IMG/VR virus record: IMGVR_UViG_2713896909_000008
DNA length: 8,052 nucleotides
Reading direction: 5' to 3' (one strand)
From: a virus
Lineage: Duplodnaviria; Heunggongvirae; Uroviricota; Caudoviricetes
In this document: piece after piece, positions 2,284 through 8,052 of the stretch
Numbering within the stretch: the stretch's first letter is position 1
Layout: each line of letters starts with the position of its first letter
Position numbers and translations under genes: made by a program
The notes under the pieces: model-generated
Database searches by the model: none
What the model was told of the DNA's origin: nothing
What the model saw: only the letters and a program-made list of their open reading frames with translations

Positions 2284-2851
2284 TTTATCCTCCATTGAGG
2301 TTCTGGGTTAAAAATGGAGACCAACACGCTGTCACGTGTGGTCGTGCGCCGGACACGGATAAGAATCCGGTACTGACAGTTTACTGAAAGGATATATCCC
2401 TGAAAAGCCAGGGCATAACGCGAAAGCACACGGCGAAATTGGTCTCTCTGTACGGTGTCGTTAAATTTAATTCGACCGTGCGCTTCCGGTTGTGGCACTC
2501 CGCGAAATGGCGCGGCGGTAAGTATGGCGGGGTTATTCCTTCCCCGTTGAGGACACCGGGTTGTCAGGTTGACCATACGCTTAAGTGACAACCCCGCTAC
2601 AACGCCCTCTGTTATCAATTTTCTGGTGGCGTTTGGCGGTATCAGTTTTACTCCGTGACTGCTCTGCCGCCCTTTTTAAAGTGAATTTTGTGATGCGGTG
2701 AATGCGGCTAAGCGCACGTGGAACAGTTAAAACCAAAAACAGTGTTATGGGTGGATTCTCTGTATCCGGCGTTAATTGTTAACTGGTTAACGTCACCTGG
2801 AGGCACCAGGCACCGCATCAACAAAGTTCATTTGTAAAAATGGAGATAATT

Positions 2852-3197: not shown

Positions 3198-3900
3198 ATG
3201 AGTAAAGTCTTTATTTGCGCCGCCATTCCGGACGAACAGGCAATAAAGGAAGAAGGTGCAATTGCTGTAGCCACTGCCATTGAAGCCGGTGACGAACGCC
3301 GCGCCCGTGCCAAATTTACCTGGCAATTCCTGGAGCAATATCCGGCTGCTCAGGACTGCGCTTATAAATTTCTTGTCTGCGAGGATAAACCCGGCATGCC
3401 CCGCCCTGCTATCGACTCCTGGGATACCGAATATATGCAGGAAAACCGCTGGGATGAGGAATCCGCTTCCTTTATTCCGGTCGAACCAGAATCCGATCCG
3501 ATGAACGTCAATTTTGACAAGCTGTCCCTTGAAGTACAGAACGCGGTCCTGGTTAAGTTCGGTACATGTGAAAACATCACCGTTGATATGGTGATTAGTG
3601 CTCAGGAATTACTGCAGGAGGACATGGCAACATTCGACGGGCATATCGTTGAGGCATTGATGAAAATGCCTGAAGTTAACGTCATGTATTCAGAGCTTAA
3701 GCTGCTCGCCATCGGGTGGGTTAAACATAAATGTAAGCCGGGTGCAAAATGGCCTGAGATCCAGACAGAATTACGCACCTGGAAAAAACGTCGCGAAGCC
3801 GAACGCAAAGAAACCGGGAAATACACGTCTGTTGTTGATCTTGCCCGCGCCAGAGTCAACCGGCAGAACACTGAAAACTCAGTAGCGACCCCCCCCCCCC
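3198..3900 (+). CDS. RecE N-terminal-like protein, 5' portion, running into the assembly gap
   Basis: ORF from ATG 3198 is open up to the poly-C/N gap. Contains ..ARAKFTWQFLEQY.., which from memory resembles the RecE N-terminus (..EIDFTWSERYQL..). Frame relation across the gap cannot be known. Confidence 0.55.
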
Positions 3901-3961
3901 NNNNNNNNNNNNNNNNNNNNNNNNNNNNNNNNNNNNNNNNNNNNNNNNNNNNNNNNNNNNN
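3889..3961. other. Assembly gap: 12-nt poly-C run followed by 61 N
   Basis: Directly visible: C x12 at 3889-3900, then N x61 at 3901-3961, interrupting an open reading frame on both sides. Confidence 0.95.
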
Positions 3962-5548
3962 CGCAAACAGCCTGATGCCCTTCGCTACGACCGCCAGACT
4001 ATTTTTGGCCTTGTCCGTGAACGTCCGATCGACATTCACAAAGCCCCTGTGGCACTGAACAAATACATTACTGAATACCTGACTACAAAGGGCGTGTTTG
4101 AAGATGAAGGAACAAATCAGAGCGCAACTGATACTCTCTCGTCGCCAGTACCAGAAACTGATGCAGTGGAAACGGCAATTCCGGACAACGAAAAAACCGA
4201 ATGCAAAGTGGAAGTCGAACCATCTGTAGAGCGTGAAGGGCCGTTCTACTTCCTCTTCACCGACAAGGATGGCGAAAAATATGGTCGCGCAAACAAACTT
4301 TCTGGTCTGAATAAGGCGCTGACTGCAGGGGCTACTGAAATCACGAAAGAAGAATATTTTGCCCGCAAAAACGGTACATACTCAGGTTCACAACAAAATA
4401 CTGGTGCATCTGACACGACCGCACAACCAGAGCCGGTAAAAGTTACCGCTGAAGAAGTAAACAAAATTATGCAGGCAGCCAATATCAGCCAGCCTGACGC
4501 CGATAAGTTGCTTGCTGCCTCTCGCGGAGAATTTGTTGCAGGGATTAGCGACCCGAATGATCCGAAATGGGTGAAGGGGATTGAAACCCGCGACTCTGTA
4601 AACCAGAACCAGCAAGAATCGGAACAGAACGACCAGAAAACGGAACAAAACAGCCCAAATGCGCAACAAAACGAGCCAGAAACGAAACAGGTTGAACCAG
4701 TAGCGCAACAGGAGCCGGAAAAAGCCTGCACCGCCTGCGGTCAGACCGGCGGCGGTAGCTGCCCTGATTGTGGTGCGGTGATGGGCGACGCAACATACCA
4801 GGAAATATTCGATGAAGAGAATCAGCCTGAAGTTCAGGAAAATGATCCGGAGGAAATGGAAGGCACTGCGCATCAGCACAAGGAGAACTCTGGCGGCAAT
4901 CAGCATCATGCCAGCGATAGTGAAACTGGCGAGGCGTCAGATCCCTTAATTAAGGTGAACGGTCACCATAATCTCACATCCACCAGCAGAGCGGGGATTC
5001 ATCTGATGATCGACCTTGAAACCATGGGAAAAAATCCTGATGCCCCGATTATCTCAATAGGTGCAATATTTTTCGATCCGCAAACCGGAGATATGGGACC
5101 GGAATTTAGTAAGACTGTCGATCTGGAAACTGCTGGCGGAGTCATTGATCGGGACACCATTAAATGGTGGCTTAAGCAATCACGCGAAGCGCAATCTGCC
5201 ATTATGACCGATGAAATCCCGTTAGATGATGCACTGTTACAATTGCGGGAATTTATCGACGAAAACTCCGGTGAATTTTTTGTTCAGGTCTGGGGAAATG
5301 GAGCAAACTTCGACAACACGATTTTGCGCCGTTCATACGAACGGCAGGGGATCCCCTGCCCGTGGCGTTACTACAACGATCGCGATATACGCACAATCGT
5401 TGAGCTGGGGAAAGCCATAGACTTCGATGCCAGAACTGCTATCCCATTCGAAGGTGAGCGCCATAATGCACTTGATGACGCTCGTTACCAGGCAAAATAC
5501 GTTTCAGCTATCTGGCAAAAACTGATCCCGAGTCAGGCTGATTTTTAA
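3962..5548 (+). CDS. 3' portion of the large gene: acidic Q/E-rich linker, CxxC-x7-CxxC zinc ribbon, C-terminal DnaQ-like DEDDh 3'-5' exonuclease domain
   Basis: Frame is open from the first base after the gap (RKQPDALRYDRQ...) through the track ORF 4049..5548. Zinc ribbon CTACGQTGGGSCPDC at 4727-4771. Exo I MIDLETMG (from 5005), Exo II WGNGANFDNTIL, Exo III HNALDDARY. An internal ATG at 5005 with a GGGGA Shine-Dalgarno could also express the domain alone. Confidence 0.7.
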   Translation, partial: RKQPDALRYDRQTIFGLVRERPIDIHKAPVALNKYITEYLTTKGVFEDEGTNQSATDTLSSPVPETDAVETAIPDNEKTECKVEVEPSVEREGPFYFLFTDKDGEKYGRANKLSGLNKALTAGATEITKEEYFARKNGTYSGSQQNTGASDTTAQPEPVKVTAEEVNKIMQAANISQPDADKLLAASRGEFVAGISDPNDPKWVKGIETRDSVNQNQQESEQNDQKTEQNSPNAQQNEPETKQVEPVAQQEPEKACTACGQTGGGSCPDCGAVMGDATYQEIFDEENQPEVQENDPEEMEGTAHQHKENSGGNQHHASDSETGEASDPLIKVNGHHNLTSTSRAGIHLMIDLETMGKNPDAPIISIGAIFFDPQTGDMGPEFSKTVDLETAGGVIDRDTIKWWLKQSREAQSAIMTDEIPLDDALLQLREFIDENSGEFFVQVWGNGANFDNTILRRSYERQGIPCPWRYYNDRDIRTIVELGKAIDFDARTAIPFEGERHNALDDARYQAKYVSAIWQKLIPSQADF

Positions 5549-5589: not shown

Positions 5590-5600
5590 GGTTATGAGAT

Positions 5601-5810
5601 ATGGCTATGAGCAGCTTATTTTTAACCGAAGATGAATTGCTAATATTAACGGGCTGCAAATATGCAAGCCACCAGCGAAAATGGTTAATGGAAAACGGGC
5701 TTCCGTTCTATACCAATCGTAGTGGCAAACCGATTGTCAGCCGGGATCTATTTACCTGCAATAAAACTTTACCACCGCGCGAGGTAGAGCCGAATTTTGG
5801 TGCAATCTGA
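5601..5810 (+). CDS. Small DUF4224-like protein in the excisionase position, translationally coupled to the integrase
   Basis: 69-aa ORF immediately upstream of int, with its stop overlapping the int start (TGATG at 5808-5812). Small proteins of this kind typically precede lambdoid integrases. DUF4224 assignment is from memory. Confidence 0.6.
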   Translation: MAMSSLFLTEDELLILTGCKYASHQRKWLMENGLPFYTNRSGKPIVSRDLFTCNKTLPPREVEPNFGAI

Positions 5811-6835
5811 TGGGAAGACGAAGGAAAAATCCTGAACACGAAAAATTACCTCCAAATGTATACCCAAATAAATATAGTTATGTATGGAAACCAACATCCA
5901 GAGAATCTGTCACACTAACCGCCATCAAGGATGGTTTAGCTGCTTTATGGAAAAAGTATGAGGAAACTGTAAATAATCGCGATCGCGCAATGACATTCGG
6001 TCGCTTGTGGGAAAAATTCCTCGCCAACGCCTATTACAGTGACCTCAGTCCAAGAACACAAAAAGATTATCTGCAACATCAAAAAAAGTTGCTTGCCGTA
6101 TTCGGTAAGGTGCCGGCAGATTCCATAAAACCAGAACACATCCGTCGATACATGGACAAGAGAGGGGAACAGAGTAAAACGCAAGCCAACCATGAAAAAA
6201 GCAGTATGTCCCGCGTTTACAGTTGGGGGTATGAGCGAGGGTACGTGAAGGGTAACCCATGTGCAGGTGTAAGTAAATTCAAGGCCAAAAACCGCGAACG
6301 ATATGTAACCGACAAAGAATACCAGGCAGTATTAAGTGTTGCACCTCTTCCTGTTTTTATCGCAATGGAAATTGCCTATCTGTGTGCAGCGAGGGTTTCC
6401 GATGTGTTATCACTGAAATGGGAGCAGATTGGAAGCGACGGGATCTTTATCCAGCAAGGGAAAACAGGGAAAAAACAGATAAAAGCATGGAGTCCACGAT
6501 TACAGGCGGCGATCGAAAAAGCAAAACAGTTACCAACATCTGCCTATGTAATCAGCAATCAATATGGCAACCGATATATGTACAAAGGTTTTAACGAAAT
6601 GTGGGTAGAAGCAAGAAATCACGCAGGCAAAATTTCAGGTATTTTAACCGACTTCACCTTTCATGAGCTGAAGGCGAAAGGAATTTCAGACTATGAAGGA
6701 AGCAGCCGGGATAAGCAACTTTTCTCTGGTCACAAAACCGAAGGGCAAGTGCTAATCTATGACAGAAAGGTTAAAGTTTCACCAACACTTGATGTCCCGT
6801 TATCTGATAATATTCCAAGAAAATATTCCAAGTAA
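5810..6835 (+). CDS. int: Lambda-family tyrosine integrase
   Basis: 341 aa. N-terminus MGRRRKNPEHEKLPPNVYP resembles lambda Int (MGRRRSHERRDLPPNLYIR). Catalytic region has R (AARVSD), H-E-L-K, GHK and the Y of LIYDR with lambda-like spacing. Lies beside a tRNA-derived att core. Confidence 0.9.
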   Translation: MGRRRKNPEHEKLPPNVYPNKYSYVWKPTSRESVTLTAIKDGLAALWKKYEETVNNRDRAMTFGRLWEKFLANAYYSDLSPRTQKDYLQHQKKLLAVFGKVPADSIKPEHIRRYMDKRGEQSKTQANHEKSSMSRVYSWGYERGYVKGNPCAGVSKFKAKNRERYVTDKEYQAVLSVAPLPVFIAMEIAYLCAARVSDVLSLKWEQIGSDGIFIQQGKTGKKQIKAWSPRLQAAIEKAKQLPTSAYVISNQYGNRYMYKGFNEMWVEARNHAGKISGILTDFTFHELKAKGISDYEGSSRDKQLFSGHKTEGQVLIYDRKVKVSPTLDVPLSDNIPRKYSK

Positions 6836-6842
6836 TTCCAAG
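6812..6842 (+). repeat. Three direct repeats of ATTCCAAG spanning the int stop; candidate arm-type integrase binding sites
   Basis: ATTCCAAG at 6812-6819, 6825-6832 and 6835-6842, between the int 3' end and the att core. This is the position of the P' arm sites in lambda. Confidence 0.4.
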
Positions 6843-6887
6843 TGTGATTTTTGTCACTGACTTAATGATGTGTAAGTGATTGAATTT

Positions 6888-6953
6888 TGGCGGAGAGAGG
6901 GGGATTTGAACCCCCGGTGGAGTTGCCCCCACTCCGGTTTTCGAGACCGGTCC
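6888..6953 (-). other. att core: 3'-terminal 66 nt of a tRNA-Ser(CGA) gene (anticodon arm, variable arm, T arm, acceptor 3' strand, CCA); 5' half absent
   Basis: Minus strand reads GGACCGGTCTCGAAAACCGGAGTGGGGGCAACTCCACCGGGGGTTCAAATCCCCCTCTCTCCGCCA. This matches the 3' part of E. coli serU as remembered, with a compensatory pair change in the variable arm. No GGAGAGA acceptor 5' strand or D arm is present upstream. Confidence 0.7.
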
Positions 6954-7033
6954 AATCATCAAACGAAACATAAAATTAGCTCACATTATGAGGAAAAGTA
7001 TCTTTTTTGTACTATGTAAATTCAAAGGCTTAG

Positions 7034-7903
<870 letters not shown>

Positions 7904-8052
7904 GTCTTTAAGTGATAAGCATAAACCGCAGCACGATCTTCTTGCATACGACGTGCTACGGTTTCATTTATCTCTGAAGTGGTCAACAAAAACTGGCCAC
8001 CGAGTTAGAGTTTTTCCAGTATCGATTTTCCGATTCGTTTGGGGGTAACCCA

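Follow-up and report, generated by a model that had tools for sequence, protein, structure and literature searches.

Why should an intact phage integrase gene lie beside only the 3′ part of a serine tRNA gene, with AT-rich DNA in the place of the missing half? The question is raised by a stretch of 8,052 bp (hereafter, the window), which is the entire contig BBWD01000058.1 of the draft assembly GCA_001515065.1. An earlier note on this DNA had explained the arrangement by two elements inserted in tandem at the same tRNA gene, and had named a deletion as the alternative. We consider it probable (roughly 0.85) that the 66-nt segment at 6888–6953 is the integrase-proximal recombinant junction left by the integration of one type of phage, here called A-type, into a 3′-only serU remnant of a prophage of another type, here called X-type. 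To judge from its neighbours on either side, this junction is a hybrid composed of an A-type integrase-side arm, the core and an X-type distal arm, and it is the attP of neither phage. The segment is thus neither a decayed tRNA gene nor a simple attP.

The segment (6888–6953, minus strand) corresponds to the 3′ part of the tRNA-Ser(CGA) gene serU and constitutes the core region of the recombinant att site, an assignment based on sequence comparison, on folding and on the use of ARAGORN with comparators. Read on the minus strand from 6953 to 6888, its sequence is GGACCGGTCTCGAAAACCGGAGTGGGGGCAACTCCACCGGGGGTTCAAATCCCCCTCTCTCCGCCA, which comprises the anticodon arm, the variable arm, the T arm, the 3′ acceptor strand and CCA. 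All 66 positions are identical to the tRNA-Ser(CGA) gene annotated beside the same integrase in the prophage records ON470580 and ON470583 (typed by ARAGORN as tRNA-Ser, anticodon cga), and 64 of 66 are identical to the native serU of the non-lysogen NCTC122. The anticodon, variable and T arms and the 3′ acceptor strand of a functional serU gene are therefore represented, in the lysogen-type form at 66/66 and relative to the native form at 64/66; the complete cloverleaf, with its 5′ acceptor strand and D arm, is not. When folded in isolation, the fragment forms the anticodon, variable and T arms, followed by an unpaired 3′ acceptor strand with CCA. Homology to serU ends precisely at 6953, the point at which one would expect the D arm and 5′ acceptor strand to start, and unrelated AT-rich DNA lies beyond. 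As ARAGORN called no tRNA in the whole window, and the stop codon of int is only 52 nt away from the fragment, the earlier note was right in claiming that the integrase adjoins the 3′ part alone of a tRNA-Ser(CGA), that the 5′ acceptor strand and D arm have AT-rich DNA in their stead, and that there is no complete tRNA at this site. In Rfam, the fragment had only tRNA-like matches (plastid psbI-rps4 and tRNA-Sec); all of them were below the gathering scores and were discounted as a by-product of tRNA-like sequence.

Within the fragment, the anticodon stem-loop occupies 6934–6950, and the anticodon CGA reads TCG at 6941–6943. Chance hardly accounts for the 15-nt core CGGTTTTCGAGACCG, of which the window has one copy where 0.01 would be expected. 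In the variable arm, the A and T of native serU are replaced by G (6919) and C (6930), a compensatory pair of phage type, and the stretch 6888–6930 is consequently considered phage-derived. Lysogens at the genuine serU site therefore carry a slightly altered tRNA-Ser(CGA) gene in which a G-C pair replaces the native A-T pair. The source annotation places a 66-aa ORF (6771–6971, minus strand) across the fragment; it matches no Pfam family and is almost certainly spurious.

To the left of the fragment lies an intact tyrosine integrase gene (5810–6835, plus strand; 341 aa; PF00589, PF22022 and PF14659) of the A-type, that is, of a serU-specific lambdoid phage. The fragment thus has a tyrosine recombinase gene with an intact PF00589 domain as its direct neighbour, the int stop codon being 52 nt from the 3′ (CCA) end of the tRNA. 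These 52 nt (6836–6887) are, by comparison with lysogens, the integrase-side att arm, P′. They show 0–1 nt differences among serU lysogens and all junction-bearing genomes, and they are unrelated to the native downstream flank of serU except for about 15 nt. When 5600–8052 was used as query, more than 400 E. coli records matched at ≥99% identity; in every lysogen among the matches listed, a near-identical integrase adjoins a complete serU gene with mtfA-asnT beyond it, and resemblance to the window extends no further than 6953.

Directly upstream of int is a gene for a small DUF4224 protein (5607–5810, plus strand; Pfam PF13986, E 1.9e-15), possibly an excisionase or directionality factor to judge from its position; the same DUF4224-int pair is annotated in serU lysogens and in the genomes PM4 and MB15. 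It belongs to an early region of Rac/Qin-like lambdoid character that comprises cro, a cI-type repressor gene, the DicF small RNA, KilR, a split recE, DUF4224 and int. The DicF antisense RNA (2621–2672, plus strand) scores 76.4 bits, with a gathering score of 48, and is annotated at the corresponding position in the related phage Tritos; next to it, at 2674–2859, there is a weak STnc100-like match of 36.4 bits, below gathering. The recE gene, which codes for exonuclease VIII (3198–5548, plus strand), consists of two overlapping ORFs (3198–4058 and 3962/4049–5548), probably because of a frameshift or deletion. Its counterpart in strain Z1323HEC0067 is a single gene of 2472 nt, and that of ON470580 is similarly split. 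As for the A-type integrase itself, it is annotated as frameshifted in both complete genomes that carry the junction (L003:20211-21261; L006:20211-21261), while the copy in the window is intact and, in its exact form, was encountered on this contig alone. Since all 341 aa are present, the prophage in the window may still be able to excise, a capacity suggested by the intact int and the P′ arm of the window, together with the A-type P arm seen in related genomes.

To the right of the fragment, the place of the tRNA 5′ half is taken by an AT-rich stretch of 176 nt (6954–7129), which flank comparison assigns to the distal att arm (P arm) of X-type phages, characterised by a GIY-YIG gene. It is 100% identical to the attR of MB15 at the genuine serU, 99.4% identical to NT1F10 (a site of the 19-nt type, see below), 97.2% identical to the Z1323 orphan alleles and 94.3% identical to CD45. 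The arm is followed by a gene for a LEM-3-like GIY-YIG domain protein (7130–7903, plus strand; PF22945, E 2.1e-14), the terminal cargo of the second prophage. In every context inspected, this gene lies at a distal prophage end, beside pinE or tail-fibre genes, and at least 80% of the block 6954–7974 was found in 822 of 5426 complete E. coli genomes. Next come a terminator-like hairpin and the last ~12 nt of pinE (7926–7975, minus strand; stop at 7964–7966, by transfer of the pinE annotation of Z1323HEC0067), and then the left end of IS911 (7976–8052, plus strand; 100% match to IS911 in Sf6 and SfII), which truncates pinE about four codons before its stop. Homology with the junction-bearing genomes ends at 7974. 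The contig ends inside IS911, which explains why the assembly broke here.

Other GIY-YIG contexts retain only a 19-nt look-alike of the anticodon arm. In genomes that have no serU fragment beside the GIY-YIG gene, the gene is part of a cassette of ~1 kb flanked by imperfect direct repeats (hairpin plus CGGTTT), whose length varies between about 22 and 41 nt by genome (window 7926–7965; L019:3775-3812; L026:3775-3813; L009:13464-13486). The upstream repeat copy continues into T(C/T)GAGACCGGTCC, which is the 19-nt look-alike of the serU anticodon arm. This arrangement could stem either from an earlier att exchange at a secondary site or from an insertion mechanism of another kind.

The identity of the two arms is best seen at the genuine serU gene. 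When A-type phages are integrated there, their far end has the arm ATGATAC... joined to 62 nt of native serU, with the native flank of the gene beyond. By contrast, five complete genomes have at the genuine serU the order zinT/(yodB), native 66 nt, AATCATC... and GIY-YIG. In two of these, PM4 and MB15, the complete arrangement is zinT/yodB – 66-nt serU fragment – GIY-YIG ... int – intact serU – mtfA, and the GIY-YIG arm closes off a complete X-type prophage at its far end. The X-type integrase (that of MB15) is 58% identical to the A-type integrase of the window, and X-type phages at the genuine serU have a distinct integrase-side flank and a native-type tRNA copy. Both elements that meet in the window therefore use the serU att site, as its integrase-side arm is that of the serU lysogens and its GIY-YIG arm is the attR arm of PM4 and MB15. 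The earlier note had supposed that the GIY-YIG gene was the terminal gene of a second element; PM4 and MB15, where it is the genuine distal arm of serU phages, bear this out.

In the window, the sequence to the left of ~6930 matches the A-type integrase-side arm and that to the right of 6949 matches the X-type distal arm; rightward from 6934, it matches the GIY-YIG flank of the 822 genomes. Both sides are joined in two of the 5426 complete genomes (Z1323HEC0067 and CD45) and in two IMG/VR contigs, and a scan of genome contigs for the junction pattern, with one genome per species, gave no match. Occupancy is thus rare: two genomes have the junction, as opposed to 429 with the empty site. The five junction-bearing sequences (the window, the two complete genomes and the two IMG/VR contigs) represent at least three flank alleles, each of which matches a different empty allele. 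As the flank allele of the window (6954–7129) differs from those of the two complete genomes, the window stands for a separate event.

The comparison of related genomes with and without the incoming prophage, which the earlier note had suggested, could be made in a pair of sibling strains. In Z1323HEC0423, the site is empty and has the order AraC-family gene – 66-nt orphan – AATCATC... – GIY-YIG – pinE – myovirus-type tail genes; its orphan fragment has the native variable arm and a mutated T loop. At the same point, its sibling Z1323HEC0067 has a lambdoid prophage of 48.1 kb (as computed from the junction coordinates) with the genes of the type III secretion system (T3SS) effectors nleF/H/C/B2. 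The left junction of this prophage consists of the left part of the orphan, including the mutated T loop, followed by CGGTTTTCGAGACCG and ATGATACC..., and the right junction consists of int, 47 nt of phage type, CGGTTTTCGAGACCG, GTCCAATCATC... and GIY-YIG. CD45 has an equivalent pair of junctions on another allele, which matches the empty allele of CDC#03-98. In Z1323HEC0067 and CD45, then, there are two core copies and an empty site for comparison (in Z1323HEC0423 and CDC#03-98, respectively), and the junction pairs are reciprocal products from which no sequence was lost. The second core copy that the earlier note had expected elsewhere is found ~48–50 kb to the left in both genomes.

A four-way comparison of the empty site, both junctions and the serU lysogens confines the strand exchange to an interval of 19 nt (6931–6949) that overlaps the anticodon stem-loop. 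Its left bound, at 6930, is set by the polymorphism between the phage and native forms, and its right bound, at 6949, by the divergence of the target (GTCCAATCATC...) from the distal arm of A-type phages (ATGATAC...). For this integrase family, natural variants alone are thus enough to place the crossover within 19 nt.

The origin of the empty sites can be read from their surroundings. The orphan fragment and the 278 nt to its left form a block of 344 bp, in which 98.8% of positions agree with the genuine serU locus; in terms of that locus, it consists of the 66 nt of the gene and 278 nt of its downstream flank. This copy is present in 429 of the 5426 complete genomes (~8%) and lies between a 46-nt thrW fragment with a phage arm, that is, a thrW-type attR, and the GIY-YIG gene. 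The prophages that carry it have myovirus-type or lambda-type tails, and their own thrW-type integrase adjoins thrW-proA. Judged by this position, the block is a captured X-type attR in the cargo region of thrW-locus prophages, in other words, an att site of host origin carried by a prophage. The two complete genomes with the junction both have their array at thrW and not at the serU gene, and in each the 344-bp copy is the target. Consequently, the claim of a tandem insertion stands in part: two mobile elements do meet at an att core, but they need not do so at the same tRNA gene, as both complete genomes have the pair at thrW. Neither is an intact serU required beside the array, because the target in these two genomes is a serU copy captured in a thrW prophage. 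A thrW core, sought in the window to account for its GIY-YIG end, was not present.

One orphan serU allele has an altered T loop, GATTTGAACCCCC having changed to GATTTGCCCCCCC (L010:8039-8104; L005:12338-12399), a change consistent with a copy no longer under selection for tRNA function but still in use as an att site. A similar arrangement exists for thrW in the same array, where a P4-like integrase, often degraded, adjoins a 46-nt tRNA-Thr 3′ fragment that ends in the anticodon loop (L005:10476-10521; L010:6177-6222; L011:6189-6234) and leads into the next prophage by way of its distal arm, thus forming another inter-element junction.

In the mechanism that we propose, an incoming A-type phage, with its DicF/KilR/RecE early region, DUF4224 and int, would integrate by tyrosine-integrase site-specific recombination. 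Its target would be a pre-existing attR-type remnant (native 3′ serU part, core and distal arm) at the X-type GIY-YIG end, and not the serU gene itself. As such a remnant keeps the whole anticodon stem-loop, it would suffice as attB for an integrase that targets the anticodon loop. Strand exchange within 6931–6949 would join the 3′ tRNA copy of the phage (6888–6930, with int behind it) to GTCC, AATCATC... and the GIY-YIG gene. The resulting junction beside int would have no tRNA 5′ half because the remnant never had one, and a fragment of this kind could serve as a target because the crossover falls in the anticodon stem-loop. On the evidence of sequence comparison, Int would have catalysed the exchange, and the natural products suggest that a 3′-only fragment suffices as attB. 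Integration in the genome of the window would have taken the same course as in the related genomes.

Other explanations have to be weighed against the integration of an A-type phage into an X-type remnant. The order late genes – att – int – early genes is that of vegetative lambdoid phages, and in X-type phages GIY-YIG does form the distal arm of an attP of serU type. The junction might thus serve as attP in one phage, possibly of recombinant origin, whose genome would run ...tail – pinE – GIY-YIG – attP – int – recE... and which was either sequenced in a circular or concatemeric form or present as a prophage integrated by another route. We regard this as very unlikely because the arms belong to different types: X-type phages differ in the integrase-side flank of their attP, have a native-type tRNA copy in it and encode an integrase of only 58% identity, and the A-type attP carries the ATGATAC arm. 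Besides, all longer junction sequences place the two sides in separate prophages; in Z1323HEC0067 and CD45, each prophage possesses structural genes and an integrase of its own. In addition, the GIY-YIG flank (6954–7974) occurs in none of the 50,697 records of the phage collection, where matches were restricted to the IS911 end and a 50-nt HK97 stretch. A simple attP of a free phage, which the vegetative-looking gene order had suggested, was rejected on the same ground, namely that the two arms belong to different phage types.

Alternatively, the prophage could lie at a genuine serU gene from which the tRNA 5′ half was lost, and next to which unrelated DNA came to lie, through a deletion or through another rearrangement, illegitimate or homologous. 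Although deletions can generate 3′-only tRNA fragments, and copies identical at 64 of 66 positions could support homologous exchange, the breakpoint coincides with the end of the 66-nt block of identity between X-type phage and host, and the combination of the 66 nt and the GIY-YIG flank pre-exists without int in 429 of the 5426 genomes. Moreover, the junctions of Z1323HEC0067 (clean and reciprocal, as its sibling shows) and of CD45 formed without loss of sequence. Homologous recombination across the 64/66-identical copies could yield the integrase-side junction, but not the reciprocal junctions of these two genomes. The deletion that the earlier note had kept as its alternative is therefore highly improbable. 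There is a comparably slight chance of an assembly chimera in which an A-type attL at serU was fused, via common sequence, to an orphan or attR copy: the window is a short draft contig that ends in repeats, and both sites have in common an exact stretch of 23 nt, ACTCCGGTTTTCGAGACCGGTCC. Short-read assemblers, however, usually work with k-mers longer than 23 nt and normally break contigs at repeats instead of joining across them, so that this stretch is shorter than the usual k-mer; furthermore, two finished genomes and two other contigs have this junction as well.

If, then, an A-type phage integrated into an X-type remnant, there are several candidates for the remnant that was used in the window. 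An X-type prophage at serU could have provided its genuine attR, in which case the two prophages would be a true tandem pair; the phage could have used the 344-bp serU copy of a prophage at thrW, as happened in Z1323HEC0067 and CD45; or it could have used the 19-nt minimal look-alike. The flank allele of the window is identical to the genuine serU attR of MB15, while both junction-bearing complete genomes have their array at thrW, and we consider a true tandem pair at serU and a prophage within a prophage to be equally likely for the window. A more general reading, about which we are slightly more doubtful than confident, is that the 344-bp copy of the serU attR acts as a portable landing pad, used repeatedly and independently by serU phages, including those that carry effector genes, and that the window records one such event. 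If this is true, the attB sites known to be borne by prophages would gain one derived from a tRNA, and there would be a natural demonstration that a 3′-only tRNA fragment, with the anticodon stem-loop and the 3′ side, is sufficient as attB.

These results account for a structure that annotation pipelines leave unlabelled or describe as a spurious 66-aa ORF, and they indicate that orphan tRNA fragments beside integrases can mark junctions between prophages and not decay. With this site, the att copies by which phages can stack on other prophages come to include one of tRNA origin; such stacking builds the prophage clusters and the effector-gene loads of pathogenic E. coli.

Several parts of this picture are known from other systems. 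Among the tRNA sites of tyrosine integrases there is reportedly an anticodon-loop class, described by Williams in 2002, in which the phage bears a 3′ tRNA portion that extends from the anticodon arm to the CCA end. The crossover of the A-type phage, in the anticodon stem-loop, resembles this class, and the symmetric stem would give core-type binding sites. By contrast, the substrate here has no tRNA 5′ half, so a functional tRNA is not regenerated.

The use of the attR of a resident prophage as attB has been demonstrated by experiment in K-12, where Sp10 integrated beside Rac (Asadulghani et al. 2009, PMC2669165). In both cases, the incoming phage recombines with an att remnant at the end of a resident prophage, which results in a junction composed of integrase, core and foreign arm. 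The two differ in that the evidence is experimental for Sp10 and comes from natural genomes here, and in that two phages with 58% identical integrases have a common serU core in our case. To our knowledge, no tRNA gene is involved in the integration of Sp10 beside Rac.

Copies of host-derived attB sites in prophages, with other phages integrated into them, have been described in STEC and EPEC for yecE (21 bp), a 96-bp site and ompW (121 bp), in a study that makes no mention of serU, thrW or tRNA (Nakamura et al. 2021, PLoS Pathog, PMC8112680). Here too, an att-bearing piece of host DNA lies at the cargo end of a lambdoid prophage, a second phage integrates into it and prophage clusters result; the likeness extends to the T3SS effector genes nleF/H/C/B2 carried by the incoming phage of Z1323HEC0067. 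However, the piece is in this case a 344-bp serU segment that ends in a 3′-only tRNA, and it is thus the scar of an attR and not an intact attB. The junction in the window is, therefore, a clear new example of a known process whose mechanism is not new.
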